Shown here: piece after piece, positions 11,692 through 31,969 of the stretch
Layout: every line of letters begins with the position of its first letter
Numbering within the stretch: the first letter of the stretch is position 1
DNA from: Rhodospirillaceae bacterium
GTDB taxonomy: Bacteria > Pseudomonadota > Alphaproteobacteria > Rhodospirillales > Rhodospirillaceae
Direction: 5' to 3'
Assembly: GCA_038148375.1 (NCBI GenBank)
Contig: JAYQVH010000005.1
Span: forward strand, 43,441-107,440
Length of the DNA stretch: 64,000 nucleotides
The notes under the pieces: generated by a model
The model's database searches: none
Told to the model about the DNA's origin: nothing
The model's input: the letters and a program-made list of their open reading frames with translations, nothing else
Made by a program: the position numbers and the translations under genes

Positions 11692-13542
<1,851 letters not shown>

Positions 13543-13611
13543 CTAGGCCGCAATGATGCGGAAATGTCGATCCGGGAAAGACAGACGGGGTGGCGGTTCA
13601 GCCGGAAGCCT

Positions 13612-13710
13612 ATGGACCATCCCTACGCCAGTTGACCTGGATCAGGTTCGAAGGGTCGTCACGCCGGAAAACCTCTTGTGACCTCTCAACCCCGATGCGC
13701 ACCTCGCGCC
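13612..13710 (-). promoter_or_regulatory. TPP (THI-box) riboswitch in the thiC leader
   Basis: The minus strand reads ...catcGGGGtTGAGAGgtcacaagaggttttccggcgtgacgACCCttcgAACCTGATCCAGGTcaACTGGCGTAGGGAtgg. This matches the conserved CUGAGA and ACCUGAUCUGG..CCAGCGUAGGGA cores. It lies about 85 nt upstream of the thiC ATG. Confidence 0.85.
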
Positions 13711-13871
13711 GGTGGGGCTCCCCTTTGGTGGCTTCGACCTTAAGACCTGCGCGCGCCCAGGGTCAACGGCGCCAGGACTTATCCACAGCCGGTAGGCGGT
13801 TGTTTCCTGTGCGCCTAGCCCAAGCGGCATATATTTGAGTAATATGCGCCAACAACAGGGGAGATTCTCGT

Positions 13872-14105
13872 ATGGCTTTGGAACCGAATGTTAATGCTGT
13901 CGACCGCGTGATTCGTGTGATCGTCGGCGCAGGACTCGCGGCTATTCCGTTTGTCGTGCCGACCAACGGCGAATGGGTGAGGGAACTGATGGAAGTGGTC
14001 GCCGGCCTGATCGGCCTGTCGCTCGTGGTTTCGGGGGCGCTGGCCTATTGCTGGATCTACAACATGCTCGGCATCAACACCTGCAAGTATTCCGGAAACG
14101 TCTGA
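13872..14105 (+). CDS. small inner-membrane protein, DUF2892/YgaP-like
   Basis: 77 aa. The NVNAVDRVIRVIVGAGLAAI motif plus two hydrophobic helices is typical of DUF2892. Confidence 0.55.
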   Translation: MALEPNVNAVDRVIRVIVGAGLAAIPFVVPTNGEWVRELMEVVAGLIGLSLVVSGALAYCWIYNMLGINTCKYSGNV

Positions 14106-14187
14106 TTTCCTGACGCAATTAAGGTCGCGCAGTTGTGACGGACTGCTCCCGCCCGTGATGTTAGACTGACCTCATGAAATTCAATCC

Positions 14188-14772
14188 GTGAGGTTCGCCA
14201 TGAACGCGCTCAAAGTCATCGTTGCCGTTGCTCTTCTGTTTGCCGCTCCCGTACAGGCGAGCGAATGGATCGACGTCGGCCCAGAAGTCGGCGCACCGAT
14301 CCCGGACGGCTTTGCCGCCAAGGACGCGACCGGGGAAACTCTGGGTCTGCCCAACATCGTTGGCGAAAAAAGTGTCGTGCTCGGCTTCGTGCGCTCGGCC
14401 AGTTGGTGTCCGTTCTGCCAGACACAGATGAAGGACCTGCAAAACATCGCCGCCGATCTTGCCGCGCGCGGTTATACGCTCGCGGTGTTGAGCTACGACG
14501 AACCGAAGATCCTCGATCAGTTCGCCAAAAAGCAGGGCATCACCTACACACTGCTGTCCGACGAGGACTCTGTCGTCATTGACGCGTTCAACATTCGCGA
14601 CCCGCAGTACGGGCCTGAGTCAATGGCGCATGGCGTGCCGCAGCCGGCGATCTTCATTATCGACCCGTCGGGTACGGTGCAGGGCAAGCTGGCGATGGAA
14701 GGCTACAAGGACCGTCCGCCGCTGGAGGACATCATGGCTGAAGTCGACCGCATCACCGGCGCGGCGTCTTAA
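14188..14772 (+). CDS. exported thioredoxin-fold redoxin / peroxiredoxin-like protein (AhpC/TSA family)
   Basis: Signal peptide MRFAMNALKVIVAVALLFAAPVQA. Active-site-like SWCPFCQTQM in a thioredoxin-fold context. Confidence 0.7.
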   Translation: MRFAMNALKVIVAVALLFAAPVQASEWIDVGPEVGAPIPDGFAAKDATGETLGLPNIVGEKSVVLGFVRSASWCPFCQTQMKDLQNIAADLAARGYTLAVLSYDEPKILDQFAKKQGITYTLLSDEDSVVIDAFNIRDPQYGPESMAHGVPQPAIFIIDPSGTVQGKLAMEGYKDRPPLEDIMAEVDRITGAAS

Positions 14773-14775
14773 GCG

Positions 14776-15468
14776 TTAGTCGCGGACGTTTAACTCAACC
14801 AAGTCGTAAATCTTGTTCCCTTCCGGGAACGTCATGCGGATCGGCAGGAAATCTTCGCCCGCCGTCGTCCACATGCACAGGGTCTTGCCGTCGCGCACCG
14901 GCCAATCCCAACGCTGGCAGGTATACGTACCCGACCTGACCTCAATGGTTTCCTCTCCCTTGTAAACATAGGGATAGCTGCGCATCGCCATGATCGGGCC
15001 GGACTCGCCCGAGGCCAGCGGCGAGGTGTTGACCGCGTTGTCCAGGATCACGGTTTCGCCCACCTTGGCCTTGGGCAATCGGGCAAGTTTCCAGATATCG
15101 GAGCAGATCGGGTGGCTGCCGAAGGCGTTGAGCGGGCGGTCGAGGCTGATGCGCTGGTGGAAGCGTCCTTCGGACACCGTAAAGCCTTCGCCTTCCGCAT
15201 AGGTGTCGGTGAAGCGGAACCACCCGCTGCCGAGCGCGCGGTCTTCCTCGGCGATGCGTACGTAGGCTTCGACCGGATGCCAGTCCGCATCCACGGTGTA
15301 GGTGACGTCGCGGGTCAAACCGATGTCGTCGAATTCGCACAGCACCCTGAGAGTGCGCAGGCCGTTGGCCTGCACACTCATCGAGAAGACTTCGCGGCCG
15401 AATTCGGTCTCAGGTTTGCCCGGCGGGTTCAGGCAATACGAGATTTTGCCGGAGATGAGACGCGGCAC
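14776..15468 (-). CDS. hypothetical protein, 16 nt downstream of and co-oriented with the Tat-FAD oxidoreductase
   Basis: 230 aa ORF with coding-like composition and no motif I recognise. The start codon is uncertain (alternative internal Met at MSVQANG). Confidence 0.5.
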   Translation of the reverse strand: MPRLISGKISYCLNPPGKPETEFGREVFSMSVQANGLRTLRVLCEFDDIGLTRDVTYTVDADWHPVEAYVRIAEEDRALGSGWFRFTDTYAEGEGFTVSEGRFHQRISLDRPLNAFGSHPICSDIWKLARLPKAKVGETVILDNAVNTSPLASGESGPIMAMRSYPYVYKGEETIEVRSGTYTCQRWDWPVRDGKTLCMWTTAGEDFLPIRMTFPEGNKIYDLVELNVRD

Positions 15469-15484
15469 GGACGGCTGTGTCCGC

Positions 15485-17062
15485 CTATATGTCGAACTTC
15501 ATGATGCGCTCACCGAGCAGCTTGCCGAAGGCAATCGCCGGGGTGACCAGCATCCCACCGCAGATCGCCCGGCCGGACGTCGCGCCGGTGCCGAGCAATT
15601 CACCCGCGGCGTAGAGATTGCCGATCGCCTTGCCGTCCTGATTGATGACTTCCAGATCCTTGTTCACGGCCAAGCCGGCTGTGGTGGTCAGGAACCAGCT
15701 GCGCATGTGGATGCCGTAGAACGGGCCTTTCTCGATCGGCAGCGGCATATGGGTGCGGCCGAAGTCTTCATCCACTCCCGTTTCTACCGACGTATTGTAC
15801 TTAGCGACCGTCGCCGCCAGACCTGCTGCACTGATGCCCATCTTGGTGGCGAGTTCTTCGATGGTGTCGGCCTTGTAGAAATTGGTCCAGCCCTCTTCGA
15901 ACGCCACCGGCAGGTCTTCGGCCAGCATTGTGCCGAAACTCGTCGAAACGTATTTCGGGGCGTTGTCGGCGATTTCCTGATCCCACACCGCCCAGCATTC
16001 TTCGCCAGGCTGCTCGACCAGGGCTTCTTCGTAAACCGCGTGACTCAGCACGTCTTCCTGCAGGAAGCGCTTGCCGTCGGCATCGACGATGATCTCCCAC
16101 GGCGGGCGGTCGCCGGGGAAGTGGCGCGCCACAGCGGCCATCGGCGAGGGGAAGTTGTCGTCCGCGAGGATCGCGCCCCACAGCGGCAGGTGGTTCTCAC
16201 CGTACCGCACGTAGCCGCCGACCGACTGACCCAGCTTGATGCCCGCACCCTGGCTGTAGGGATACGACACGTCGGAATAATCCTTCACGCCTTCCAGTTC
16301 TTCGAACATCTGCGCGTTGGAGGCATAGCCGCCGCTGGTCAGCAAGACATTCTTGCCCATGAATTTCTCAGCCTTGCCGTCGGCATTCACAGTGCCGACA
16401 CCGATGACGTTGCCCTTGTCATTGGTCAGCAGTTCTTTCGCCTCGGTGTTGGTCTTGACGGTGACCGTGCCGGACTCAATGTGCGGTGCCAGTTTCTGTT
16501 CGAAGATTTCGAGTACGCCAAGACCGAATTTCGGGCTCCAGGCATAGCGCGCATGACTATATGGCTCGTGCGTCGTGCCGGTGACCGGATGATGCGGATA
16601 CACTTCCAGGCCGCTATCCATAAGCCAGTCGAAAGCAGCTGCCGCGTTTTGCGTGGCCAGACGCAGAATGTCCGGATCGGCAGTGTTGTTGCTTATGCGC
16701 ATGACATCGTCGTAGTGAGACTGCCAGCTGTCTTCCGTAATGCCCTTGGACTTCTGCAGCTTGGAGCCGGCGGCGCTCATTTGCGCGGAGGATAGAAACA
16801 AGGTGCCGCCGATGCTCGAAGCGGCTTCGATGATCAGCACCTTTGCGCCGCGTTCGGCAGCGAAAATTGCCGCTGGCAAACCGGCCGTGCCGCCGCCGAC
16901 GATAACCGCATCGTATTGCGTCTCATGGCCGTCGGCGCGCGCGCCTTTGCTCATGGTTGCTGCGGTCATGGCGGCGACCGCGCCGGACAGGAATTCGCGC
17001 TTGGTCAGGCGTTGCGCCAAAGGCTTGAAATGGGTCAGCCACGAATCGGAAATCTTGGACAT
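15485..17062 (-). CDS. Tat-signal FAD-dependent oxidoreductase (FAD_binding_2; fumarate-reductase/KstD-like flavoprotein)
   Basis: Twin-arginine-like leader LTKREFLSGAVAAMTAATMSKGARA. Dinucleotide fold YDAVIVGGGTAGLPAAIFAAERGAKVLIIE. C-terminal NLYAAGELLG motif. Confidence 0.8.
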   Translation of the reverse strand: MSKISDSWLTHFKPLAQRLTKREFLSGAVAAMTAATMSKGARADGHETQYDAVIVGGGTAGLPAAIFAAERGAKVLIIEAASSIGGTLFLSSAQMSAAGSKLQKSKGITEDSWQSHYDDVMRISNNTADPDILRLATQNAAAAFDWLMDSGLEVYPHHPVTGTTHEPYSHARYAWSPKFGLGVLEIFEQKLAPHIESGTVTVKTNTEAKELLTNDKGNVIGVGTVNADGKAEKFMGKNVLLTSGGYASNAQMFEELEGVKDYSDVSYPYSQGAGIKLGQSVGGYVRYGENHLPLWGAILADDNFPSPMAAVARHFPGDRPPWEIIVDADGKRFLQEDVLSHAVYEEALVEQPGEECWAVWDQEIADNAPKYVSTSFGTMLAEDLPVAFEEGWTNFYKADTIEELATKMGISAAGLAATVAKYNTSVETGVDEDFGRTHMPLPIEKGPFYGIHMRSWFLTTTAGLAVNKDLEVINQDGKAIGNLYAAGELLGTGATSGRAICGGMLVTPAIAFGKLLGERIMKFDI

Positions 17063-17161
17063 TGGTCTCTCCCTGGTCGGATTTGATGGCAGATTAGCGC
17101 AGGGAGACGCGCCCCGATAGAGCGGTTGATACCCGGTCGCATCCGAGGGAAGGCTCGTGCG

Positions 17162-17533
17162 CTATGCCTTGGCGGACGCGATGGCCGCAAGCAACTGACC
17201 GGCGTCGATCGGTTTGGTCATGGTGCCGGCCACCTTGAGCCCGCCCGTTTCCGCCAAAATTCCGGCCTGGCGCACATAATCCTGACTCTTGCCCGAGACC
17301 AGTATCACGGCGCAACGGTGCGCTTAGTGTTTCAGCCAATCGATCAGCTCAAAACCGTCCCGCTCCGGCATGACGATGTCGATAACCGCCACCTGTGGCT
17401 CAAACTCAAAGAAGATGTCTTCAAATTCATCGGCGGAGGATGCGGTTCGGACCGTTAGTCCATGTTTTTCCACGATCCGCGAGACGAGGTCGGTAAAGCT
17501 TTCCTCGTCGTCCACGACCAAGACCTTATTCAC
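17162..17533 (-). pseudogene. single-domain CheY-like response regulator interrupted by an in-frame TAA (reverse complement of 17324-17326)
   Basis: The track ORF ends at MNKVLVVDDEE...VIDIVMPERDGFELIDWLKH*. My translation in the same frame continues AHRCAVILVSGKSQDYVRQAGILAETGGLKVAGTMTKPIDAGQLLAAIASAKA* (TAG at 17162-17164). That is the expected second half of a receiver domain. Confidence 0.75.
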
Positions 17534-17778
17534 GGCCGGGTTCCTTAACGTACTGCAATATCAACAAAAACTCTCGTTTCCTAATATAATTATCATAATA
17601 AAAATAGAGTTTTAAGCCTAGACCGCTCATCCGGCGTGCGCCCGGCTTACGACCGGCGCGCCGGTATCTCTTGCACGGCGATACGAACGGCGCGAGGCTT
17701 GCCAGCAGACACGTTGCCGTGACCAACCGCGCGGGCCGAAAAGGGGCTGGCCTGCGCCCCTATCACCGGAGGTCCGCC

Positions 17779-18993
17779 ATGTCCCGCTTGTTCAAAGACA
17801 CGACAACATCCCGCCGCGCGTTTCTGGCCGGCACGACCGCGGCTGCCGCAGTGGCGCTGCCGTCGCTCAAGGCTCTGGCCGAGGCGGCGGAGTGGGACGT
17901 CGAATGGCGTGGCACTAACGGCATCTTCGAGCGTCTGCCGTATCTCGACGTCGAGAGCGATCAGGATTTTTACCGCGGCTTTCGCCGCTGGATTAACAGC
18001 GACGTCATCAACGCGGCACGCAAGCGGGCTTTGGAAATCCTGGCCGAGAACGGCATCGCGCCGGACGAAGAGATTCCCATGGATCAGGTCATGGCGCTGA
18101 TGGAAAACGATCACATCATGGGGCTGTGCGTGCTCACCTGGCAAAATACACAGCTGGCTATGTGGCGCCAGATTCAGGACACCTATCACCGCGAAGCCGA
18201 CCTCTATCTGGATGAAATGGAGGCGGCGGAAAAGCTCGGTCCGGGCAGCATCGAACTGCATCCCGAAATGCGCATTCCGCCCTACGCCAGTTTCGAAATT
18301 CACCTCCAGCCCGGCGGGTATGTCGGCGACCCGTTCGCCGGCTACATCTACGTGCACGGCGAGAACGTCGTGTTCAGCAACGGCAACTACCAGGACAACG
18401 CCCAGCGCATGCTGGCCACGCGCGTCCCGGCACCGCCGGACGGCACCGTCAACCGCGTACTCGAACAGGGCTGCAGTTCCGGTCAGTTCACTGTGGCGCT
18501 CAAGCTCAAATGGCCGCAGGCGGAGGTGTGGGGCTCCGACGTCGGCACGCCGATGATCCGCTACGCCCACATGCGTTCGGTCGAGCTCGGCATCGAGACC
18601 CATTACATGCATGAGCTCAGTGAAAAGAGTAACTTCCCGGACAACCACTTCGACGTGGTCACCAACAATCTCTTGTTCCACGAAGTCCCGGCGGACATGG
18701 CCCGCGGCATCATCAATGAGGGCTTCCGCACCTTGCGTCCCGGCGGCATTTACTTCCCCATCGATCAGTTCACCGCCAATCCGCCGAGCAAGAGTGCTTT
18801 CGGCAAGTTCTGGGCGTGGCGGGATTTCCGCTGGAACGAGGAAGTGTGGCGCATGGAATACACCGATCTCGACATGGAAGGGGCGATGCGCGACGCCGGG
18901 TTCGAGGTCGTGAGAGGTCCGGTCGTGCGCATGGGCGGACTTTATTCAGAGCCCGGATCCCGCGGGAACCTTATGGGCATCAAGCCCGCTTAG
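17779..18993 (+). CDS. Tat-signal class I SAM-dependent methyltransferase, paralog A (404 aa)
   Basis: GGAGG lies 7 nt upstream of the ATG at 17779. Leader MSRLFKDTTTSRRAFLAGTTAAAAVALPSLKALA. Methyltransferase motifs VLEQGCSSGQ, EVWGSDVGTPM, FDVVTNNLLFHE and LRPGGIYF. Confidence 0.8.
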   Translation: MSRLFKDTTTSRRAFLAGTTAAAAVALPSLKALAEAAEWDVEWRGTNGIFERLPYLDVESDQDFYRGFRRWINSDVINAARKRALEILAENGIAPDEEIPMDQVMALMENDHIMGLCVLTWQNTQLAMWRQIQDTYHREADLYLDEMEAAEKLGPGSIELHPEMRIPPYASFEIHLQPGGYVGDPFAGYIYVHGENVVFSNGNYQDNAQRMLATRVPAPPDGTVNRVLEQGCSSGQFTVALKLKWPQAEVWGSDVGTPMIRYAHMRSVELGIETHYMHELSEKSNFPDNHFDVVTNNLLFHEVPADMARGIINEGFRTLRPGGIYFPIDQFTANPPSKSAFGKFWAWRDFRWNEEVWRMEYTDLDMEGAMRDAGFEVVRGPVVRMGGLYSEPGSRGNLMGIKPA

Positions 18994-19004
18994 GAGTCAG
19001 TTCA

Positions 19005-20189
19005 ATGCCCGATCGCAGAACCGCATTTCAGACCGCTGCCGCTGTCGCCGGTGGTGTCGCCGGACTGTTCGGCAGCCGCGCGTCACAGGCCAAGCTGCCG
19101 GCTTCGGCCGACGTCGAACCGCGCGGCACGGATCGCCGTCTTGAGCGGTTGCCTGAACTGGATGTGGAAAGCCGCGAGGATTTTCTCACCCGCTTTCGCA
19201 TCTGGGTGAACGGAGACGTCCGCCGCGCCGCATCGGAGCGCGGCGATAAGATCATGGCAGCCAAGGGGCTCGATCCGCGCGCGGACATCACCTACGAGGA
19301 AGCGGTTGAGTTGATCGGCGACGACCACATCGTCGGGCTGAGCGGCCGGGCCTGGATTAGTGCCCAGCAGCTGATGTGGAAGAACCTGCAAACCGCCTTC
19401 TACGACAACGCCGACGCTTACCTGGATGAGATGGAAGCGGCGGATAACGCCGGTCCGGGCAAGCTCGAACTCAATCCGGACATGTACATCCCGAAATACT
19501 GCAAGCATGAGATTCACATGCAGCCGGGCGGTTATGTCGGCGATCCCTTAGGCGGCTATGTCTATCACTACGGCACCAACAACTTCTGGGAAGGCCGCAA
19601 CAGCCAGGACGAGATGGACAAGCAACTGGCCGACGCCATTCCGACCCCGGCGGACGGCAAGGTCAAACGCATCCTGCACATGGGGTGCAGCGCCGGTCAG
19701 CTGACCCTGCGCATTCAGGAACGCTTCCCCGACGCCGAGGTCTGGGGCGTCGATGTTGGCGGCCCGATGGTCCGTTACGCCCACATGCGTGCCGTCGATC
19801 TCGGCATCGGTGCGAACTTCCGCCAGGCCCTGGCAGAGGACACCGGGTTCCCCGACGGCTATTTCGACATGGTGACATCCTTCCTGCTGTTCCATGAAGT
19901 CAGCTCGGAAGGGGCGGACGACATCATCAAGGAAGGTTACCGCGTGCTGCGGCCGGGCGGGGTGTTCTATTCCCGCGATCAGCGCGACTGGGATAAGCTG
20001 CCGCCGGCCACCGCCTTCCAGAAATACCAGAGCTTCTGGATCAACCGTTGGAACCACGAGGTCTGGCAGCGCGAGCACCGGTCGAACAACTATCCGAAGA
20101 TGCTCTCCGATGCCGGATTCAAGGTCGGCTCGCCGTTCGAGGGCGGCATGATCGCCCAGGCGTCGTTGATGGGGACCAAGCCGGTCTAA
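19005..20189 (+). CDS. Tat-signal class I SAM-dependent methyltransferase, paralog B (394 aa)
   Basis: AGGAG lies upstream of the ATG at 19005, 11 nt after the paralog A stop. Leader MPDRRTAFQTAAAVAGGVAGLFGSRASQA. Motifs ILHMGCSAGQ, EVWGVDVGGPM, FDMVTSFLLFHE and LRPGGVFY. Confidence 0.8.
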   Translation: MPDRRTAFQTAAAVAGGVAGLFGSRASQAKLPASADVEPRGTDRRLERLPELDVESREDFLTRFRIWVNGDVRRAASERGDKIMAAKGLDPRADITYEEAVELIGDDHIVGLSGRAWISAQQLMWKNLQTAFYDNADAYLDEMEAADNAGPGKLELNPDMYIPKYCKHEIHMQPGGYVGDPLGGYVYHYGTNNFWEGRNSQDEMDKQLADAIPTPADGKVKRILHMGCSAGQLTLRIQERFPDAEVWGVDVGGPMVRYAHMRAVDLGIGANFRQALAEDTGFPDGYFDMVTSFLLFHEVSSEGADDIIKEGYRVLRPGGVFYSRDQRDWDKLPPATAFQKYQSFWINRWNHEVWQREHRSNNYPKMLSDAGFKVGSPFEGGMIAQASLMGTKPV

Positions 20190-20296
20190 TTCCGGCTGCC
20201 CAAGCCATAACTGCGGCCTATAGCTGCTTCCGAGTTTTAAATTGGCGGTTATCCGCCAACGCGCCTATGTTTGGGCGAGTTTCAAGGAGGCCCAGT

Positions 20297-21484
20297 ATGC
20301 TCGACCGCAGAACCCTGTTTTCCACCGCCGCTGCCGGCGCGACCGCCGCATCCCAGCTTGTCGGAGGCCGCAAGGCCAAGGCCGCTAAATCCGGCTTCAA
20401 AGGCGATGTTGAAATGCGCGGCAGCAAGGGCCGCCACGAACGCCTGCCGACTCTGGATCTCGAAAGCCAGCAGGACTTTCTTACCGGTTTTCGCAACTGG
20501 ACCCAGCAGGGTTTCCGCACTCTTGCGCCGAAACGTATGGATCAGCGGCTGGAAGAGCGCGGCATCGACCCGAAGTCCGACCCGCCGATTGATATCGTTA
20601 AAGACATCGCCGACAACGACACCGTGCTCGGCTTGGCCGCGCACACCTGGCTGAACTGCCAGTATCTGACCTGGAAAACCATTCAGGATCATTTCCATGC
20701 CGACGCCGACCGCTATTTCGACGAACTCGAAGCAGCTGACAAGACCGGTCCGGGAACGCTGGAACTGAATCCGGATATGGATCTGCCGGATCACACCAAA
20801 CACGAAATTCACATCATGCCCGGCGGCTACGTCGGCGACCCGTTGGGCGGCTACGTCTTCCATCACGGCACCAACAACTTCTACACCAACCGCAACAACC
20901 AGGACGAACTGCATCAGGTCTATGCGGACTCCGTGCCGGTTCCCGAAGACGGTAAAGTCAGTCGCGTCCTCGAAGTCGGCTGCACCATCGGCCAGATGAC
21001 CATCGCCCTCAAGGAGCGGTTCAAGGACTCAGAAGTTTGGGGCATCGACGCCGGCGGCCCGATGCTGCGCTACGGCCACATGCTCGCCGTCGACCTCGGC
21101 GTGGATGTCAACTTCGCGCAGCGTCTGGCCGAAGACATGAAGTTCGAAGACAACAGCTTCGACATCGTGACGTCGTACATCCTGCACCACGAAATGCCGG
21201 CTGAGATTTCCAAGCAGCACATTCGCGAAGCCTTCCGGGTGCTGCGACCGGGCGGCGTGTTCTTCCCGATCGACTTCTACACCGGCGGCAACAAGCCGTC
21301 GCCGCTCGCCCACCGCAAGTACCGCCACTACTGGGATATGCGCTGGAACAACGAAGTGTGGTGGGACGAATACGAAAACCTCGACATGCTGGCGGCGATG
21401 AAGGATGCCGGGTTCGACGCTACGGACCAGGGGCCGCCGGCCTGGATCGGGCCGAACAACCTGATCGGCATCAAGCCCGCTTAA
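20297..21484 (+). CDS. Tat-signal class I SAM-dependent methyltransferase, paralog C (395 aa)
   Basis: AGGAGG lies upstream of the ATG at 20297. Leader MLDRRTLFSTAAAGATAASQLVGGRKAKA. Motifs VLEVGCTIGQ, EVWGIDAGGPM, FDIVTSYILHHE and LRPGGVFF. Confidence 0.8.
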   Translation: MLDRRTLFSTAAAGATAASQLVGGRKAKAAKSGFKGDVEMRGSKGRHERLPTLDLESQQDFLTGFRNWTQQGFRTLAPKRMDQRLEERGIDPKSDPPIDIVKDIADNDTVLGLAAHTWLNCQYLTWKTIQDHFHADADRYFDELEAADKTGPGTLELNPDMDLPDHTKHEIHIMPGGYVGDPLGGYVFHHGTNNFYTNRNNQDELHQVYADSVPVPEDGKVSRVLEVGCTIGQMTIALKERFKDSEVWGIDAGGPMLRYGHMLAVDLGVDVNFAQRLAEDMKFEDNSFDIVTSYILHHEMPAEISKQHIREAFRVLRPGGVFFPIDFYTGGNKPSPLAHRKYRHYWDMRWNNEVWWDEYENLDMLAAMKDAGFDATDQGPPAWIGPNNLIGIKPA

Positions 21485-22581
21485 TCGGTCTTTCTAGGCG
21501 TTCCGACGTAGATGCCGAGGCCGCGCGCGGTCTCGAGCATCTCATGATGCGGATCGACCACCCGCGGTCCGGTGATCGCCACGTCCATATCGACGGTGGT
21601 GACATGGCCGCCGGTCCAGGCAGACATTTTTCGTGTCTCGCCTTTCATCAAGGTGTCGACGGCGTTGACGCCCATCGCAGAGCCGAGCAGGCGGTCGAAC
21701 ACGGCCGGCGTGCCACCCCGTTGCAGATGACCGAGGACGGTACAGCGCGTCGACACGCCTGTTCCCTTCGCCAAGGCATCGGCCAGCACCGTGCCGACCC
21801 CGCCCAGCGCGCGGTTGGAGCCGAAATAAGGCATGCCGATCAGTGCGCCCTTGGGATCCGGGGTGCCTTCGGCGACGACGACCAGGATATGGGCGCGTTC
21901 TTTCGCGCGGATGCGTTTAATGTGCGCGATCAGGTCAGTGATGTCGTACCGCAGTTCCGGCATCAGGATGGCGTCGGCGCCGCCGGCGACACCGCCGTAC
22001 AAGGCAAGAAAGCCGGACTCCCGGCCCATGGTTTCCAGCACCATGATGCGGCGATGGCTGGTCGCCGTGGTGTGCAGCCGGTCGAGCGCGGAGCCGACGA
22101 TATCGACGGCGGTGATGAAGCCCACGGAGAAATCCGTGCCCGGAACGTCATTGTCGATGGTCTTGGGTACGCCCACCCAGGGGATGCCCGACGGCGTGAG
22201 GAGTTTGTCGAAGATGCGCATGCTGCCGTCGCCACCGATCACGACCATGGCGTCTACGCCGAGGTGGCGAATGGCCTTTATGATATCGCCGGAGCGATCG
22301 GACGTGCCGCCGCTTTCGTCGGGATAGGCCCAGGGATCGCCTTGGGTTGTGGCCCCCAGCATCGTGCCGCCGGCGCGCAGGAGTTCGCCCTCGAACAGGC
22401 CGAGCGTCAATCGCTGAAATCGCGGCGGATCGGCGAGCAAGCCGTGCTGGGCTTCGTTAATGCCAATGACCTCGCAGCCGAAATGTTCGATGGCGTGCTG
22501 GACGACACCGCGGATCACGGCATTGAGACCGGGGCAGTCGCCGCCGCTGGTGAGAATGCCAAGTGTTTTTATGGCGCCCAT
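21481..22581 (-). CDS. pfk: 6-phosphofructokinase (ATP- or PPi-dependent not resolved)
   Basis: 366 aa with LGILTSGGDCPGLNAVIRGVV, VVIGGDGS, PKTIDND and LGHLQRGG motifs. Confidence 0.9.
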   Translation of the reverse strand: MGAIKTLGILTSGGDCPGLNAVIRGVVQHAIEHFGCEVIGINEAQHGLLADPPRFQRLTLGLFEGELLRAGGTMLGATTQGDPWAYPDESGGTSDRSGDIIKAIRHLGVDAMVVIGGDGSMRIFDKLLTPSGIPWVGVPKTIDNDVPGTDFSVGFITAVDIVGSALDRLHTTATSHRRIMVLETMGRESGFLALYGGVAGGADAILMPELRYDITDLIAHIKRIRAKERAHILVVVAEGTPDPKGALIGMPYFGSNRALGGVGTVLADALAKGTGVSTRCTVLGHLQRGGTPAVFDRLLGSAMGVNAVDTLMKGETRKMSAWTGGHVTTVDMDVAITGPRVVDPHHEMLETARGLGIYVGTPRKTD

Positions 22582-22682
22582 TCACAACTCCTGCCGGGCG
22601 TGAGACCGATTGATTTTAATTAAAGCGCGGGACGCCGTGCAAGCCTATGATACCCCCCTCAGTTAACTACGTCACATGTGCC

Positions 22683-24173
22683 ATGTTGAAAATTCGCCGC
22701 ATACCGATCGATACGCTTGGGGAAAACGTCGTTTACCTGTCCGACCTCTGCCAAGTCTATCGCGTCGACGCATTCAAAGGCGGCAACAAAGTCGAAGTCG
22801 GTGCCAGCGGACGCCAGGTCATAGCCGTCATCAACGTCGTTCACGGCAATCATCTCCTTGAACCGGACGAAGTCGGGCTTTGCACCGACGCTTTCGAAGA
22901 ATTGGGACTGAGCGAAGGTACGCAAGTCGTCCTGAACCCGACCTTGTCGCCGGCCAGCATGGATTACGTCCGCAATAAAGTTTACGGCCAAACGCTCACC
23001 CGTGCCCAGTTGCTGGAAATCGTCACAGACATCGCCGGGCACCGGTACTCTCGCATGGAAATCACGGCATTTCTGATGGCCTGCGCCGCGTTCATGACGA
23101 CCGAGGAAGTGCTCGATCTGACGCTTGCGATGGCCGAGGTGGGCAGCCGCCTCGACTGGAAGCAGGAGATCGTCGTCGATAAACATTGCATCGGCGGCTT
23201 GCCCGGCAACCGCACGTCGATGATTGTCGTGCCCATCGTCGCCGCGCACGGACTGCCCATTCCGAAAACCTCGTCACGGGCGATTACATCTCCGGCGGGC
23301 ACAGCGGACACCATGGAAGTGCTGGCCAATGTCGATGTGCCGATCGACCGCATGATCGATATGGTCGCGGAGATCAAAGGGTGCTTGGCGTGGGGCGGTC
23401 ACGTCAATCTGTCCCCGGCGGACGATATTCTGATTTCGGTCGAGCGGCCGCTGGCCATCGACACGCCGGAACAGATGGTGGCGTCCATTCTGTCCAAGAA
23501 AATCGCCGCCGGATCGACGCATATGGTGATCGACATGCCGGTTGGGCCCACGGCCAAGGTTCGCTCGCACCACCAGGCCGTGAAGCTGCGCAAACTCTTT
23601 GAATTTGTCGGTCACGAAGTGGGCCTGAATTTGGACGTCGTGATCACCGACGGGACTCAGCCCATCGGCAACGGCATTGGCCCGGTGCTGGAGGCGCGCG
23701 ACGTTATGGCGGTCCTGCGCGGCGAAGACTCAGCGCCGGCTGACCTCCGCGACCGTGCGCTTTTGCTGGCGGGACACGTGCTCGAATTTGATACCAGCCT
23801 TCATGGCGGCGAAGGTTTCAACAGGGCACGCGAGTTGCTCGAAAGCGGAGCGGCACTGCGGACGATGGAACGGATCATGGACTATCAGGGCCCGCCGCCG
23901 GAGGCGTACGCGCTCGGCGAGTTGTGTCACGCCGTCACGGCGCCGGCCAGCGGCGTCGTGACGGCCATTGATTGCTACCGGATCGCGCGCATCGCGCGCG
24001 CTGCCGGCGCACCGGTGTTCAAGGGCGCGGGACTTGATCTGCATCGCAAGGTCGGCGATCCGGTCGAGCGCGATGAGCCTCTGTATACCCTTTATTCCGT
24101 GATCGAATCAGACGCCGCGAATGCACTGGCGATGGTTGAGGCGGACAACGCCTATGCCATTCAGGCGATCTGA
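22683..24173 (+). CDS. thymidine-phosphorylase-family protein of the long, archaeal AMP-phosphorylase-like type
   Basis: About 496 aa from the ATG at 22683. It has an extra N-terminal domain (MLKIRRIPIDTLGENVVYL...GTQVVLNPTLSPASMDYVRNKVYG). This precedes the glycosyltransferase-3 core (DKHCIGGLPGNRTSMIVVPI, TSSRAITSPAGTADTMEVL). Confidence 0.8.
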   Translation: MLKIRRIPIDTLGENVVYLSDLCQVYRVDAFKGGNKVEVGASGRQVIAVINVVHGNHLLEPDEVGLCTDAFEELGLSEGTQVVLNPTLSPASMDYVRNKVYGQTLTRAQLLEIVTDIAGHRYSRMEITAFLMACAAFMTTEEVLDLTLAMAEVGSRLDWKQEIVVDKHCIGGLPGNRTSMIVVPIVAAHGLPIPKTSSRAITSPAGTADTMEVLANVDVPIDRMIDMVAEIKGCLAWGGHVNLSPADDILISVERPLAIDTPEQMVASILSKKIAAGSTHMVIDMPVGPTAKVRSHHQAVKLRKLFEFVGHEVGLNLDVVITDGTQPIGNGIGPVLEARDVMAVLRGEDSAPADLRDRALLLAGHVLEFDTSLHGGEGFNRARELLESGAALRTMERIMDYQGPPPEAYALGELCHAVTAPASGVVTAIDCYRIARIARAAGAPVFKGAGLDLHRKVGDPVERDEPLYTLYSVIESDAANALAMVEADNAYAIQAI

Positions 24174-25075
24174 TGACGGTGCCGGCACAAAAGGTTGGCG
24201 TCGTAGGGTTCGAGCAGGACGCCCAAGCGGCCACGCGGTTGGCGCAGGCGCTGACCTGCGACTTCGGGATGATCGAACGTCACACGTTTCCCGATGGGGA
24301 GTCGTTGGTGCGCGCGCCGGAGTGCCCGGAGACAGTCGTGCTGTACGCCGCTCTTGATCGCCCCAACGCCAAGATCTTCGATCTGTGTCTGGCGGTGGAC
24401 GCGCTGCGCCGCCGCGGTGTCCGACGCATTGTGCTGGTAGTCCCCTACTTGCCCTACATGCGCCAGGACAAAGCGTTTCACTCCGGCGAGGCCGTGAGCC
24501 AGCAGGTGTTGGGCGCACTGCTGGCAGGCCGGATCGACGGCCTTGTAACCGTCGATCCCCATTTGCACCGGGTGAATGACCTGCAAGAGGTGTTTACAGG
24601 ACTTAAGACCGCCGCTGTCTCCGCCGCGCCGTTGGTCGCTCAGGCGGTTAAAACTCGCCTCGACAGCGGCCGCGCTGTTGTGATCGGGCCGGATGAGGAG
24701 TCCACGCCTTTGGTGCGCTTGCTCGGGGAAGCAGCGGGTTGCGCGTGGATGGCCGGGACCAAACGTCGCAGCGGCGACCGCCAGGTCGAGCTGACTCTCC
24801 CTGACGAGCCCAAACTGGCCTGCCGGACGGCGGTGATCTTCGACGATGTCGTGAGTTCGGGCACCACGGTTTGCGCCGTGGCTCAAGCGGCAAAGGACGC
24901 GGGCGCGGCGGAGATACTGGTCTACACCACCCACGCATTGTTCAGCGGTGAGGATGAGGCGCGCATGCGGGACGCGGGAGTGGCGTCGTTCGTTTCATGC
25001 GATGGCGTCCCCCACGCCACAAACGGCATTGCCCTTGCCCCTGTTCTGGCTGAGGCTGTTCAGTCATGTCTGTAA
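24173..25075 (+). CDS. ribose-phosphate pyrophosphokinase-family protein (Prs-like)
   Basis: 300 aa with VVPYLPYMRQDK and the PRPP-type loop VIFDDVVSSGTT. The start overlaps the upstream stop (TGATG). Confidence 0.8.
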   Translation: MTVPAQKVGVVGFEQDAQAATRLAQALTCDFGMIERHTFPDGESLVRAPECPETVVLYAALDRPNAKIFDLCLAVDALRRRGVRRIVLVVPYLPYMRQDKAFHSGEAVSQQVLGALLAGRIDGLVTVDPHLHRVNDLQEVFTGLKTAAVSAAPLVAQAVKTRLDSGRAVVIGPDEESTPLVRLLGEAAGCAWMAGTKRRSGDRQVELTLPDEPKLACRTAVIFDDVVSSGTTVCAVAQAAKDAGAAEILVYTTHALFSGEDEARMRDAGVASFVSCDGVPHATNGIALAPVLAEAVQSCL

Positions 25076-26703
25076 CTCTGACCTTTCACGGTGCATGCGG
25101 CATTGTCACCGGATCCTGTTTTCGGCTGAGCACCGCCAAGGCGACCGTGCTGATCGAATGCGGGTTGTTCCAGGGGACCAAGACGGTGCGCAATCTGAAC
25201 TACGGGCCGCTGCCGTTTGACCCGAAAAGCATCGCCGCAACCGTGCTGACCCATGCCCATATCGATCACTGCGGGCTTGTGCCCAAGCTGGTGCGCAGCG
25301 GGTTCAAAGGCGATATCTTCGCGACACCCGCAACCGGCGATCTGCTGAGTTATGTGCTGCCCGACAGCGGTCACATCCAGGAAATCGAAGTCGAGCGCCT
25401 GAACTGGCGCAATCGCCGGCGCGGTCAACCGCCGGTGTCGCCGATTTACACCCGCAAGGATGCCGAAGACGCGCTCTCCCGTATTGTGCCCAAGGAGTAC
25501 CAGGAGTGGTTTGACATCGCGCCGGGCATGCGCGGCCGGTATTGGGACGCCGGGCATATTCTGGGTTCGGCCAGCCTGGAACTCGCCGTCGAATTACCCG
25601 ATGAAGACAAACCGCTGTCGCTTCTGTTTTCGGGAGATATCGGGCCTGGCGGTAAAGTGCTCCATGACGATCCCGATGCGCCGCATGACATCGATGCGGT
25701 GATCATGGAGACAACGTACGGCGACCGGGAGCGCGATGATTTAACACCGGAGCAACGCCGCGCTCACCTTGGCGATGTCATTCAGCGGGGACTGGGAAAG
25801 GGGGGCCTTATTCTGATTCCCTGTTTCGCCGTCGAACGCACCCAGGAGCTGTTGGTTGATCTCGACGCATTGTTTGATTCGCGTGCGCTTCCCGAGGTGC
25901 CAGTTTACGTCGATTCCCCACTGGCAACGCGTGCGACCGAGGTATTTGACAGACATCTGGAAGACCTCGCCGATGATGGACCAACCCATCCGTTCCGGCG
26001 CGGCAACGTCCGGTTCGTCAAAGACGTCGAGGAGAGCAAGGGTCTCAGCCGCCTGAGCGGCGGGGCGATTATCATGGCCGGCAGCGGCATGGCCGATGCG
26101 GGCCGCATTCGCCATCACCTGCGCAACAACCTGCATAAAACCAATACGACCGTCTTGCTGGTCGGCTATCAGGCGCCTGGGACGATGGGACACTTGCTGT
26201 GCAACGGGCGCAAGATGGTGCGAATTCACGGTGAGGAAATCTCGGTCAAAGCCGAAATTGTCATGATTGACGAGTATTCCGGTCACGCCGACGACCGTGC
26301 GCTGTTGGCATGGCTCGGTGACAGGCTGCCGGTTCACAACGACATCTTCTTGGTCCATGGCGAGGAACCGTCCCGCGTGGCCTTCGCCGCGGCGGCACGG
26401 GAACGCTTTGGCGCGGATTTGCCGCTGCGGTTGCCGGTGATGGGGGAGACGGTCAGCCTGAGCAAATCCAAGCCGGCCAAGACCCTGGCGAAACGGCCTC
26501 CGCTCATCGATCCGGCGGATACGATCGCGGATTGGCACAATATGTATGCGGAGACGATATTGGCCCTGCGTCACGCTCTGGAGGCGGCGGCAAACGATAA
26601 GGAACGCCGTCATCTCTTGGAGCGCATGGCGAAGGTGATCGGCGACAAGCGCTCACATGCAAAGGACCGCCGGACCGTGCGGAGCCAGCGCAAGAAGGGC
26701 TAG
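25066..26703 (+). CDS. MBL-fold beta-CASP hydrolase (RNA-metabolising metallo-beta-lactamase family)
   Basis: 545 aa with THAHIDHCGLVP (HxHxDH), METTYGDR and DEYSGHAD motifs. It overlaps the upstream gene by 10 nt. Confidence 0.8.
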   Translation: MSVTLTFHGACGIVTGSCFRLSTAKATVLIECGLFQGTKTVRNLNYGPLPFDPKSIAATVLTHAHIDHCGLVPKLVRSGFKGDIFATPATGDLLSYVLPDSGHIQEIEVERLNWRNRRRGQPPVSPIYTRKDAEDALSRIVPKEYQEWFDIAPGMRGRYWDAGHILGSASLELAVELPDEDKPLSLLFSGDIGPGGKVLHDDPDAPHDIDAVIMETTYGDRERDDLTPEQRRAHLGDVIQRGLGKGGLILIPCFAVERTQELLVDLDALFDSRALPEVPVYVDSPLATRATEVFDRHLEDLADDGPTHPFRRGNVRFVKDVEESKGLSRLSGGAIIMAGSGMADAGRIRHHLRNNLHKTNTTVLLVGYQAPGTMGHLLCNGRKMVRIHGEEISVKAEIVMIDEYSGHADDRALLAWLGDRLPVHNDIFLVHGEEPSRVAFAAAARERFGADLPLRLPVMGETVSLSKSKPAKTLAKRPPLIDPADTIADWHNMYAETILALRHALEAAANDKERRHLLERMAKVIGDKRSHAKDRRTVRSQRKKG

Positions 26704-27004
26704 CCGAGCCTCTTGCGTCATTGACGTAGGCGGGCGCCATCCAAGGCCCATGAGCTCTAAAACTTCTATTTATAACAGTGGGTTATCGGGGCTTTTTTAC
26801 ACAATGTTCAAAGACCGTGGCAGGCCGTGCATGGGGTCGTTCGACGCGGAGTCCCGCATTGGAACAAAATTCTACGATTGACGCTGTTCGCAGGGGCGTT
26901 CGCCCACAAACCTGGCCCTTGAATTCCCTTTGATTTTCCAGGGCCGACGCTTCATCATCCCGACATAACAAATCCGCATCGACACCAGCTCAGGACACCG
27001 CTCC

Positions 27005-28195
27005 ATGCTCGACCGCCGTACTCTGTTTGGCGCCACAGCCGCCACATCCGCTTTCGTCTCCTCCCTGTTCAAGGGCCGCGCGCCGAAAGCCGCGACCAGC
27101 GCTGCCGTAACCTTCCAGGATGTCGAGAAGCGCGGCACCATGGGCCGCCTTGAGCGTCTGCCGGCGCTGGACCTCGAAAGCAGCCAGGACTTCCTCACCG
27201 GCTTCCGCAACTTCGTCAACCGCGACATGCGCCAGGTGACCCTGCGCCGGTTCACCAAGCTGCTCGAAGCCAACGGCCTCGATCCCAAGGAAGATCTGTC
27301 CATGGAGGTCGTGTTGCCGCTGGTCGAGAAAGACCCGATCCTGATGATGAGCGTGCGCGGCTGGGTTTCAAATCAGCAGCTGACCTGGAAGCAGGTTCAG
27401 GATTACTTCCACGCCAATGCTGAGACCTACCTCGCCGAGATGGAATCGGCCGATACCTCCGGACCGGGCTCGCTTGAACTCAATCCGGGTGTCGAGCCGG
27501 AATACACCAAGCATGAAATTCACATCCAGCCGGGTGGCTACGTCGGCGACGAATTCGCGGGCTATATTAACTACTACGGCGTCAATAACTTCTATGGCGG
27601 CAGCAACTACAACGACGAAGTGCAGGCGTCGATTGCCGAGCGGGTGCAGACTCCGCCGGACGGCAAGGTCAACCGCATCCTCGACATCGGCTGCGCCACG
27701 GGCCGTCTGACCATCGCGCTCAAGGACCGCTTCCCCGATGCCGAAGTCTGGGGTCTGGACGTCGGCGGACCGATGGTCCGCTTCGCCCATACCCGCTCGG
27801 TCGATCTCGGCAAGGACATTCACTACGTTCAGCGCCCGGCTGAGGACACCCGGTTCCCGGACAATCATTTCGATTTGGTGGCGGCCTATATCCTGTTCCA
27901 CGAAGTGACGTCGGAAGCCCAGGATCAGATCGTCGCCGAAGCCATGCGCATCCTACGTCCGGGCGGCGTGTTCTTCCCGATCGATTTCCGGACCGGCAAG
28001 CAAGCCGGCAAAGGCGACGCCTACCGCGCGTTCTCGACGTGGTGGGATCATCGTTTCAACGGCGAGCCCTGGCGTTTAGAATATGCGTCGCGTGATTTCG
28101 CCGACGTCATCCGCAGCCACGGCTTCGAAGTCAACGAAGACATTCCGGCGGCCCGCCGCGGCCACGGCGCCATCATGGCGGTCAAGCCGGCCTAA
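27005..28195 (+). CDS. Tat-signal class I SAM-dependent methyltransferase, paralog D (396 aa)
   Basis: Leader MLDRRTLFGATAATSAFVSSLFKGRAPKA. Motifs ILDIGCATGR, EVWGLDVGGPM, FDLVAAYILFHE and LRPGGVFF. Same overall architecture as paralogs A-C. Confidence 0.8.
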   Translation: MLDRRTLFGATAATSAFVSSLFKGRAPKAATSAAVTFQDVEKRGTMGRLERLPALDLESSQDFLTGFRNFVNRDMRQVTLRRFTKLLEANGLDPKEDLSMEVVLPLVEKDPILMMSVRGWVSNQQLTWKQVQDYFHANAETYLAEMESADTSGPGSLELNPGVEPEYTKHEIHIQPGGYVGDEFAGYINYYGVNNFYGGSNYNDEVQASIAERVQTPPDGKVNRILDIGCATGRLTIALKDRFPDAEVWGLDVGGPMVRFAHTRSVDLGKDIHYVQRPAEDTRFPDNHFDLVAAYILFHEVTSEAQDQIVAEAMRILRPGGVFFPIDFRTGKQAGKGDAYRAFSTWWDHRFNGEPWRLEYASRDFADVIRSHGFEVNEDIPAARRGHGAIMAVKPA

Positions 28196-28224
28196 AATTT
28201 ACCCGTCAGCACGTAAAACACATT

Positions 28225-28259
28225 GAGCCCCGCCACGAAAGTGACGGGGCTCTTTGTTT
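28225..28259 (+). terminator. probable Rho-independent terminator after paralog D
   Basis: gagccccgccac-gaaa-gtgacggggctc stem-loop (one mismatch) followed by tttgttt. Confidence 0.6.
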
Positions 28260-28328
28260 CCGGCTGAGGCCGCGGGGAGGGGTTGGGTCGCCTCACGCCG
28301 GACGGGGGTTGGACTGCTGGCGTCCCCG

Positions 28329-28808
28329 TTAGTCGGGATCGGTGTCGTCGACACTGTCGCTGTCCGCAAGTTCCAAGATGCCAAAGGTGGCCAAGGCGAG
28401 ACCGCCGGCGACGACGAACCAGCCTTGCGGTCCCATGCCGAGGACCGAATGCCGGGTGCCGTCGGGATCGTCCAAACGTGACGGCAGCAATGACCTGTTG
28501 GCCAGTTGCACGTCATCAAGGCCTTGCGCTGTAAAGCTGACGTTCATCAGCTGCGGAGAGTCGAACATCAGTCGCAGGTTTTGACTGCGGCCGCTGATGG
28601 GCATCTGCGAGAGCGCAAAGCCATATTCCGGCCCGGACTGATGGTCTTCAGCGTGGAGCGGTACTTTGAAATACACCATGCCGGTCGTGCCGCCCCGGAC
28701 ATCCCAGGCGTTCATCGGATCGAAATCGGCGGCGGAGGACTGGTTCGTCCACGTCAGGGCGATAGTCAGGCTGAAGAGAGTCGAATAGATTGATTTCCGG
28801 TTCATCAT
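28329..28808 (-). CDS. exported hypothetical protein with a C-terminal hydrophobic helix and acidic tail
   Basis: Signal peptide MMNRKSIYSTLFSLTIALTWTNQSSA. C-terminus GWFVVAGGLALATFGILELADSDSVDDTDPD. No recognisable family. Confidence 0.5.
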   Translation of the reverse strand: MMNRKSIYSTLFSLTIALTWTNQSSAADFDPMNAWDVRGGTTGMVYFKVPLHAEDHQSGPEYGFALSQMPISGRSQNLRLMFDSPQLMNVSFTAQGLDDVQLANRSLLPSRLDDPDGTRHSVLGMGPQGWFVVAGGLALATFGILELADSDSVDDTDPD

Positions 28809-30147: not shown

Positions 30148-30335
30148 CGTCTCGCTCCTTCAGCTCGATTTGAATTGTCGCGAAACCGGAAGGATGGGCC
30201 GGCCCCAAGTCCTGTGGTCTCGATACCTAGACGGCACCGGAGCGGCGTCACCTCCATTTTCTTTTCTCGGACAGAGTCGTCCGCAACCGCGTGTTGCGGT
30301 AGGATAGCCAAAGGGCAGAGGAGAGAACGCAGGGC

Positions 30336-31965: not shown

Positions 31966-31969
31966 AGTC

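Follow-up and report, generated by a model that had tools for sequence, protein, structure and literature searches.

The closest described relatives of the proteins considered here are generic methyltransferases of the Methyltransf_11/25 type, such as YcgJ (PDB 1xxl), LahSB (6uak), RebM (3bus), the phosphoethanolamine N-methyltransferases (5wp4 and 5wp5), Coq5 (4obw), and DsyB (7wdq), none of which has a signal peptide. In a stretch of 64,000 nucleotides (nt) from a Rhodospirillaceae bacterium (assembly GCA_038148375.1, contig JAYQVH010000005.1, positions 43,441–107,440 of the forward strand; the whole of this stretch is called the window), four paralogous genes, A, B, C, and D, encode proteins that have the Rossmann core and all the S-adenosylmethionine (SAM)-binding motifs in common with these enzymes (Foldseek probability 1.0). 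The generic enzymes match only the C-terminal half of the family, and the N-terminal part of A–D carries, in addition, a leader with the features of a twin-arginine translocation (Tat) signal. The original prediction, made from the sequence of A–C, had regarded a whole paralog family with such leaders as unexpected for an enzyme class held to be cytoplasmic, and had considered export of folded, cofactor-loaded proteins, use of a different donor or ligand, and a non-catalytic binding role.

Two further kinds of known enzyme bear on the question of how a SAM-binding protein might act outside the cytoplasm. The Tat pathway exists largely for proteins that acquire their cofactors in the cytoplasm, including metal clusters, molybdopterin, flavins, NADP, and copper. 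Glucose–fructose oxidoreductase (GFOR) is a nucleotide-cofactor enzyme that Tat exports in the folded state and that keeps its NADP, without exchange, once in the periplasm. According to the account given in a review, export of GFOR in Zymomonas mobilis depends on NADP binding (Halbig et al. 1999, via PMC7317946). GFOR is non-homologous to the present family and serves only as a working analogy, in which tight nucleotide binding by the family is the hypothetical element. Within the class I fold itself, LepI, SpnF, and RdmB use bound SAM or S-adenosylhomocysteine (SAH) as a structural or electrostatic cofactor, without net methyl transfer. All three belong to natural-product biosynthesis, work in the cytoplasm, and are of the O-methyltransferase family 2 type; we found no specific sequence relationship between them and the family. 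Their mode is one way of acting where the supply of SAM cannot be renewed, and a review deals with roles of SAM other than methyl donation (PMC10491745).

The genes A, B, and C follow one another on the same strand with intergenic gaps of 11 nt (A–B) and 107 nt (B–C), and each ATG is preceded at 6–8 nt by a Shine–Dalgarno sequence (GGAGG in A, AGGAG in B, and AGGAGG in C); the list of open reading frames (ORFs) and reading of the sequence bear out this arrangement and the gene lengths as first described. The original prediction had spoken of four proteins in its proposed checks, and the fourth is D, located 5.5 kb beyond C. Exactly four family copies are present in the window by tblastn, with mutual identities of 46–49% (Table 1). 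A scan of species-representative genomes found 553 stretches with relatives, the best 80 of which are considered below; related loci are denoted by L numbers. The array of the window is orthologous to contiguous A-B-C(-C′-C″)-D arrays in seven related genomes: orthologs of A (72–83% identical) and of B (72–80%) occupy the first and second places, respectively, in the arrays of L003, L004, and L007, the closest homolog of C (94% identical) lies in L003, and orthologs of D (73–86%) are found directly 3′ of C or of C duplicates in the seven genomes. The order A, B, C, D is kept across metagenome-assembled genomes (MAGs), and the fact that orthologs are 64–94% identical while paralogs stay below 50% suggests that the four proteins have distinct, retained functions. 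Judged by these comparisons, A–D form a conserved cassette, its members being distinct paralogs that diverged long ago within a single uncharacterised family of enzymes. In the window, C and D are split by a block outside the cassette, consisting of pfk on the minus strand and genes for a putative thymidine phosphorylase of archaeal type (TIGR02645, 608 bits), a ribose-phosphate diphosphokinase of PRK07199 type, and a hydrolase of the beta-CASP metallo-beta-lactamase fold. No such block lies within 10 kb of the arrays orthologous to this one in L003, L004, L005, and L007–L010, and because of this absence in seven related genomes it is an insertion or rearrangement in the window genome. A PADLOC check for defence systems gave no match for the block or for neighbours of unknown function.

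Table 1. Coordinates of the cassette, its leaders, and associated features (positions are those of the window, except where a related locus is named).
Feature	Position	Strand	Remarks
Paralog A	17779..18993	+	404 amino acids (aa); leader, helical N-domain, and class I methyltransferase domain; ORF and Shine–Dalgarno sequence
Predicted Tat signal peptide of A, MSRLFKDTTTSRRAFLAGTTAAAAVALPSLKALA	17779..17880	+	RR at residues 12–13; predicted cleavage after ALA
Paralog B	19005..20189	+	394 aa; ORF, Shine–Dalgarno sequence, Pfam
Predicted leader of B, MPDRRTAFQTAAAVAGGVAGLFGSRASQA	~19005–19091	+	RR leader rules
Paralog C	20297..21484	+	395 aa; ORF, Shine–Dalgarno sequence, Pfam, AlphaFold2 model
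Predicted leader of C, MLDRRTLFSTAAAGATAASQLVGGRKAKA	~20297–20383	+	RR leader rules
Paralog D	27005..28195	+	396 aa; fourth cassette member, displaced by the intervening block
Predicted leader of D	~27005–27106	+	RR leader rules; no strict AxA
Intervening block, outside the cassette	21481..26703	.	four genes splitting C from D; Pfam and NCBIfam matches
FAD_binding_2 flavoprotein	15485..17062	-	525 aa; T-K-R-E-F-L leader; divergent from A; Pfam 174 bits
Conserved 230-aa protein	14776..15468	-	adjoins the flavoprotein gene in syntenic loci; cluster 33
Sigma-70-like promoter match	17561..17590	+	TCAACA-18-TATAAT, 10/12, consensus match only; upstream of A
Leaderless array paralogs	L048 11218–12330; L072 9983–11089
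Leaderless array paralogs	L076 6462–7586 and 7612–8814; L078 9959–11092 and 11125–12336
Loci with the small helical protein c1	L014, L021, L022, L025, L028–L034, L036–L038, L040, L045, L047, L049, L053–L055
Loci with c1, continued	L059, L062, L064, L067, L068, L073, L074
Further c1 copies	L079 7687–8004; L083 6681–7004; L084 6555–6968 and 5400–5663

The leader of A has SRRAFLAG, 17 uncharged residues, and then K-ALA; the corresponding parts are DRRTAF, 19 uncharged residues, and R-ASQA in B, DRRTLF, 19 uncharged residues, and RKAKA in C, and DRRTLF, 17 uncharged residues, and KGRAPKA in D, with a small-x-small site present in A, B, and C. The RR motifs, weakly hydrophobic h-regions, and AxA-like sites first pointed out for A–C, and the basic c-regions pointed out for B and C, were seen again in the leader analysis. 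The features to be expected were taken from a review, according to which Tat signals have a nearly invariant RR within SRRxFLK, a Gly-rich and Leu-poor h-region, and a basic Sec-avoidance residue, whereas Lys and Arg are interchangeable in signals of the general secretory (Sec) pathway (PMC7317946). The first homology search yielded more than 1350 relatives, nearly all 390–405 aa long and with 100% coverage, and an RR leader was found in 119 of the best 120. For leader statistics, 124 family sequences were examined, 120 of which fit the leader pattern. Among these 120, the pair is RR in 119 and never KR or KK, the consensus is [DN]-R-R-[TS]-L-F with L at +3 in 105 and F at +4 in 93, the c-region is basic in 119, and AxA occurs in 114; the uncharged run has a median length of 19 residues (range 13–23), a mean Kyte–Doolittle value of 1.33, and a composition of 32% Ala, 17% Gly, and 9% Leu. 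The strictness of RR is telling because of the Lys/Arg interchangeability of Sec signals. In the alignment of 42 sequences at 50–70% identity, R4 and R5 are invariant. A strict form of the RR-leader pattern was matched by 129 of 159 family ORFs, as against 42 of 1201 other ORFs of the same related loci and 0 of 56 in two families of neighbours that are cytoplasmic.

An RR segment created by a mis-called start codon was ruled out, since the leader is conserved at the protein level, with RR invariant, in homologs 50–94% identical. A single protein that appeared to fuse an upstream neighbour (c1, see below) to the enzyme (P0159) was set aside as a read-through or frameshift artefact, its internal MINRR leader being still visible. 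On the pattern of conservation, the twin-arginine leader is a family-wide trait, and we consider it probable, with good confidence, that the family is exported by Tat.

The leader can be set against relatives that have none. A profile of the N-domain alone, run against 1.84 billion representative proteins, reached 238 clusters (50% identity) at E ≤ 1e-3 and 50 at E ≤ 1e-30, and the sequences fall into a long form of about 390–410 aa, in which the domain begins at residue 35–57, and a short form of about 350–365 aa, in which it begins at residue 3–14. Among 80 full-length representatives from this search, 41 have at least 25 residues ahead of a conserved RG, every one of these 41 extensions being of the RR type, and the other 39 have at most 13 residues there. 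In a neighbour-joining tree, which is rough, midpoint-rooted, and indicative only, the deep branches are leaderless and a nested crown clade holds the Tat forms. As to whether orthologs conserve the RR leader, a point raised by the original prediction, they keep it, and the leaderless relatives form a separate, deeper branch that starts at the mature domain. H172, G232, H298, E299, R314, and E353 are invariant in both branches, and D251, H261, and D289 are conserved to at least 95% in each; the exported branch is the more constrained one at D280 (34 of 41, against 14 of 39 in the leaderless branch) and also at R49, R349, and W355. In four loci (L048, L072, L076, and L078), leaderless paralogs lie inside arrays beside Tat-bearing ones, so that predicted cytoplasmic and predicted exported versions are encoded in a single locus. 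With the same SAM-site and putative catalytic residues in both forms, the leader is an added, separately selected module, the enzyme being otherwise unchanged. The ancestor was probably cytoplasmic and leaderless, often accompanied by a small helical partner; a cleavable twin-arginine signal peptide would have been acquired in one clade, which underwent a massive radiation in aquatic Rhodospirillaceae. The best 80 loci come nearly all from marine or Lake Baikal MAGs of Rhodospirillaceae or Alphaproteobacteria, with the addition of one Povalibacter. Within them, 24 assemblies account for 156 distinct copies, one aquatic Rhodospirillaceae MAG alone having at least 22, and tandem arrays are the rule.

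The methyltransferase assignment was examined by profiles and by a structural model. Matches to Methyltransf_25 (cut-off 27 bits) reached 55 bits in A (residues 227–323), 70 bits in B (223–319), 71 bits in C (224–320), and 77 bits in D, and those to Methyltransf_11 (cut-off 21.2 bits) 50–71 bits across A–D, placing the Pfam domains at residues ~223–325, so that both models lie above cut-off in all four proteins, as the original prediction had proposed to check; the class I motifs that it quoted for A–C are present and are conserved in the alignments. The AlphaFold2 model of C, built with the 42-sequence alignment as input, has a mean predicted local-distance difference test score (pLDDT) of 84 and consists of disordered residues 1–32, as expected for a signal peptide, an all-helical domain at ~53–212, and a Rossmann domain at 223–392 with strands at 223–228, 246–251, 272–275, 288–294, 316–325, 374–379, and 388–392. 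Foldseek gave 762 matches to PDB entries at E ≤ 0.001; the top 50 are all methyltransferases, the hits being SAM or SAH complexes, and the matches are to class I enzymes of generic kind (DsyB, Coq5, phosphoethanolamine N-methyltransferases, CysG/BelI, and CouO). The template-modelling scores of 0.3–0.44 on query length indicate that only the C-terminal half is covered, and the PDB sequence and profile matches are likewise confined to residues ~214–364 (E 1e-11 to 1e-13). The model thus returned the Rossmann methyltransferase fold, with generic class I matches only, and on sequence and model together A–D are best described as class I SAM-type methyltransferase folds.

Beyond the Rossmann core the family has no described counterpart that we could find. 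The helical N-domain of ~180 aa matched nothing in Pfam, NCBIfam, or PDB, no Pfam or NCBIfam model describes the whole protein, and no solved structure covers the N-domain. None of the NCBIfam equivalogs was reached, the best (CpaM, UbiE/MenG, BioC, and ArsM) scoring far below cut-off and over the Rossmann core only. Membership in UbiE/MenG/COQ5 was rejected on scores of 25–52 bits for TIGR01934 against 158 and of 18–47 bits for the PRK00216 models against 216–378, and membership in CpaM on 47–64 bits for NF043040 against 180, with the alignment limited to the Rossmann core; the JGI label ‘UbiE’ attached to relatives is a generic domain-level name, and leaderless relatives carry generic labels only. 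A search of the accessible literature on periplasmic or Tat-dependent SAM methyltransferases returned nothing relevant and no characterised relative. The earlier statement that no characterised family has this architecture agrees with these searches, which gave neither a family model nor a PDB match to the N-domain nor a publication.

Residue conservation was counted in a family alignment of 272 sequences. Motif I reads [DE]xGC[GST]xG, with an acidic residue at position 226, G228 and G232 in 271 sequences, and G (98), S (92), or T (46) at position 230. Only acidic residues occur at the ribose-binding position 251 (D in 261, E in 11), E279 is present in 269 and the adenine-binding D280 in 233, and F288 and D289 are found in all 272. 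With these SAM-site residues so preserved, it is very probable that A–D bind SAM or SAH. Essentially invariant are, in addition, H172, R258, H261, H298, E299, R314, D326, and E353, of which H298 lies just past strand 4, at the motif-IV position, and is preceded at position 297 by Phe (123 of 272) or His (107 of 272).

This last arrangement recalls CysG and BelI (PDB entries beginning with 9fc), calcium-dependent carboxyl O-methyltransferases in which a His–His pair past strand 4 and an acidic residue (His122, His123, and Asp191) bind the divalent metal, an N-terminal Arg holds the substrate carboxylate, and a dedicated hydrolase afterwards cleaves off the methyl ester (PMC11408123). These enzymes are among the best sequence and fold matches of the family, which has [F/H]297-H298-E299 in the corresponding place and an invariant R258, and alpha/beta hydrolase genes recur near it. 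They differ in being cytoplasmic, in their length of ~215 aa, and in lacking the N-domain, and in the family only H298 is invariant. An equivalence to His–His–Asp would be one of residue identities only, with E299, D326, and E353 as candidate acidic ligands, and that the family attacks a carboxylate or phenolate with the assistance of a metal and Arg is a reasonable guess by analogy, and only a guess.

Referring to GFOR and to the LepI type of enzyme, we propose the following course of events. Each protein would fold in the cytoplasm and bind SAM or SAH there, as the conserved SAM-site residues suggest, and a divalent metal may bind to the invariant constellation of H172, H261, H298, E299, D326, and E353. 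The Tat translocase would then export the folded protein, the leader would be cleaved, and the enzyme would act in the periplasm, where its partners may be other Tat-type enzymes encoded in the same loci, notably the flavoprotein divergent from A. Tat rather than Sec would be used because the nucleotide, and perhaps the metal, is acquired in the cytoplasm. The substrates may be small molecules, probably carboxylate- or phenol-bearing, since the invariant Arg258 and His298 at motif IV suit such substrates. To our knowledge there is no periplasmic SAM supply or pool and no general SAM exporter, and for this reason the most economical reading is that the nucleotide serves as a non-exchanging cofactor. 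It might be a structural or electrostatic cofactor of a reaction without net methyl transfer, or else a methyl shuttle that is recharged in place by strong methyl donors, for example sulfonium compounds or methyl halides. For the whole course, from cytoplasmic loading with SAM or SAH through folded Tat export to periplasmic action with the cofactor retained, we see the chances as evenly balanced. That the cofactor is retained rather than consumed, an idea drawn by analogy, is put forward tentatively, and in its widest form, the proposal is rather doubtful. In that form, Tat would export a whole family already carrying SAM or SAH as a prosthetic group that does not exchange; the bound nucleotide would either shuttle methyl groups from donors in the environment (sulfonium compounds such as DMSP, or methyl halides) to acceptors or serve as an electrostatic cofactor, and marine Rhodospirillaceae would employ dozens of these enzymes for transforming dissolved organic matter outside the cytoplasm.

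Several observations weigh against this proposal and bring the alternatives into play. The invariant motif-IV His and the Arg resemble an ordinary general-base small-molecule methyltransferase (CouO, CysG/BelI), which favours SAM-consuming methyl transfer over a cofactor-only role, and no sequence sign of unusually tight nucleotide binding was seen. The metal site is proposed from residue identity alone, the leader statistics depend on simplified in-house rules, and the link to the flavoprotein is one of gene neighbourhood, partly amounting to simple vertical synteny among related genomes. The proteins might, accordingly to the first of these points, be exported by Tat and yet be conventional SAM-consuming enzymes, supplied with SAM by an unrecognised export or uptake route or performing a single turnover on a periplasmic or envelope target. 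The site (His298 at motif IV, and Arg258 with His261 on the helix that follows strand 2) resembles the one found in ordinary small-molecule methyltransferases; leaderless relatives, in which these residues recur, are presumably methyltransferases of the normal, cytoplasmic kind; and a LysE/RhtB-type exporter gene adjoins the family in seven loci. We nevertheless regard this alternative as unlikely: besides the lack of any known periplasmic SAM pool or general SAM exporter, the gene neighbourhoods, though not screened systematically for them, showed no genes for the handling of SAM or SAH, a single turnover would be very costly at 22 or more copies per genome, and SAH would build up as an inhibitor without a periplasmic nucleosidase.

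Other alternatives concern the leader. With TIGR01409 (cut-off 16.7 bits), the Tat-signal model, A scored 17.5 bits as a whole protein and 21.9 bits as an isolated N-terminus, and the homolog P0041 scored 16.7 bits, equal to the cut-off, but among the nine N-termini tested no match was given for B, C, D, and four of five homologs; the model has 29 positions, and HMMER filters drop weak short matches. The profile check suggested by the original prediction was therefore positive for A only and negative for B, C, and D, which weighs against Tat export as proposed and, together with the missing strict AxA of D, could mean that there is no soluble export, the proteins being cytoplasmic, or attached to the inner membrane by an uncleaved anchor, or using the leader for regulation or quality control. 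Some Tat substrates indeed stay anchored by an uncleaved signal, although such an anchor would still place the catalytic domain outside the cytoplasm. The h-regions, with their 13–23 uncharged, Ala/Gly/Ser/Thr-rich residues and a Kyte–Doolittle value of ~1.3, are not transmembrane-like, AxA sites and basic c-regions are nearly universal, and RR is strictly kept across the radiation in spite of leaderless paralogs in the same arrays, which indicates that the leader is dispensable for folding and selected for a function of its own; retention in the cytoplasm or at the membrane is thus distinctly improbable. We assign a very low probability to the leaders being Sec signals with a chance arginine pair, whereby the proteins would cross unfolded and fold in the periplasm without nucleotide. 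Tat and Sec signals do overlap in their range of hydrophobicity, and Sec can be engaged by many of the Tat type (PMC7317946), but RR, never replaced by KR or KK, is followed by a polar residue, L, and F as in the Tat consensus, the basic Sec-avoidance residue is present in all but one of the 120 leaders, and the h-regions are Gly-rich and Leu-poor. Nearly as improbable is an exported but non-catalytic role, in which the methyltransferase fold would be reused for periplasmic ligand-binding or sensor proteins. The lineage-specific expansion and the TonB-dependent receptor and major facilitator superfamily (MFS) neighbours do resemble those of solute-binding-protein families; against this, the exported branch keeps all SAM-site and putative catalytic residues (H172, H298, E299, R314, and E353 in 41 of 41), D280 is even more constrained there than in the leaderless branch, and no membrane components of ATP-binding cassette (ABC) or tripartite ATP-independent periplasmic (TRAP) type are consistently adjacent in the related loci. 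Among the three possibilities originally considered, a purely non-catalytic binding role is the least favoured, because the SAM-site and putative catalytic residues are equally invariant in both branches.

If the proposed loading in the cytoplasm and action in the periplasm are true, a methyltransferase fold loaded with SAM or SAH would be a new class of Tat cargo and the first case of periplasmic SAM enzymology, challenging the working assumption that SAM-dependent chemistry stays cytoplasmic. The leaderless and Tat-bearing sisters with the same active site would offer a natural experiment on adaptation to a compartment without the co-substrate. The compartment paradox is family-wide and ecologically sizeable, not confined to one genome, and enzymes active outside the cytoplasm could affect the modification of dissolved organic compounds by marine and lake bacteria and possibly also the making or consuming of volatile methylated compounds. 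The family does not yet bear on a long-standing open question; by its sequences, it appears to combine a known fold with a new N-domain and a new partner protein, in a compartment where that fold was not expected.

This partner protein, c1, is a small helical protein of ~105–140 aa encoded directly upstream of a family gene in 28 related loci and absent from the window. It has 369 database relatives, all labelled ‘hypothetical’, gave no Pfam or PDB sequence match, and is unrelated to the N-domain; its AlphaFold2 model is a two-helix hairpin (pLDDT 73) without a Foldseek match. c1 genes adjoin family genes, usually directly upstream, with or without a Tat leader. A role as a Tat-specific proofreading chaperone was rejected, since c1 homologs precede leaderless members too, in three of the four contexts examined; being also upstream of leaderless relatives, c1 is more probably an ancestral partner than a Tat chaperone, and could be a subunit co-exported without a signal of its own.

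The FAD_binding_2 flavoprotein encoded upstream of A has its best PDB relatives in urocanate reductase (1e-43) and the flavocytochrome c3 fumarate reductase of Shewanella (1e-40); urocanate reductase (UrdA) and the flavocytochrome c3 fumarate reductases are periplasmic reductases. It consists of the FAD domain alone, without the heme or FMN-binding domain of these periplasmic relatives, and scored below cut-off with every NCBIfam equivalog. The family of this flavoprotein is present in 17 of 78 related loci, beside arrays in several different paralogous contexts, and also lies divergently upstream of arrays in the related genomes (copies are in the window, L003–L011, L046, L052, L055, L056, L072, and L075). 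Its leader reads S/T-K-R-x-F-L in nearly all copies and has RR in one, and is by this pattern a variant of the Tat motif in which Lys-Arg is conserved. The neighbouring 230-aa protein (cluster 33), which has no signal peptide and no Pfam, NCBIfam, or PADLOC match, is found at the same position in L003, L004, L005, L007, and L010, and from this synteny only we infer that it may be part of the functional unit.

The intergenic region between the flavoprotein gene and A (17063–17778) is unusually long, 716 nt, and matched no Rfam family. A strongly AT-rich patch stands out in it at 17560–17615, in a genome of 60% GC. A riboswitch upstream of the array was looked for and set aside, none being found in 13400–28400 except the thiamine pyrophosphate (TPP) element of thiC. 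This TPP riboswitch-like element (13604–13734, minus strand) lies just upstream of thiC (11692–13530, minus strand) and scored 50.6 bits against the Rfam gathering threshold of 54.3 (E=1.4e-7), with the full-length model matched.

In seven related loci (L018, L024, L035, L048, L052, L058, and L075), the gene of a LysE/RhtB-type exporter (205 aa, cluster 28, identified by eye) is convergent directly after a family member; next to it is encoded a glyoxalase-like protein, which itself bears an RR leader in 8 of 10 copies. Other recurrent neighbours of the family are DUF1838 proteins, alpha/beta hydrolases, VanA-like Rieske oxygenases, MFS transporters, and TonB-dependent receptors. Downstream of D in the window are two minus-strand ORFs with overlapping stops, of 421 aa (28882–30147) and 221 aa (30144–30809), neither with a Pfam, NCBIfam, or PADLOC match. 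They are followed at 30961–39158 by a FecR-type gene and genes for a TonB-dependent receptor, an MFS transporter, a VanA-like Rieske oxygenase, and an alpha/beta hydrolase, and the last part of this block is syntenic with related arrays.

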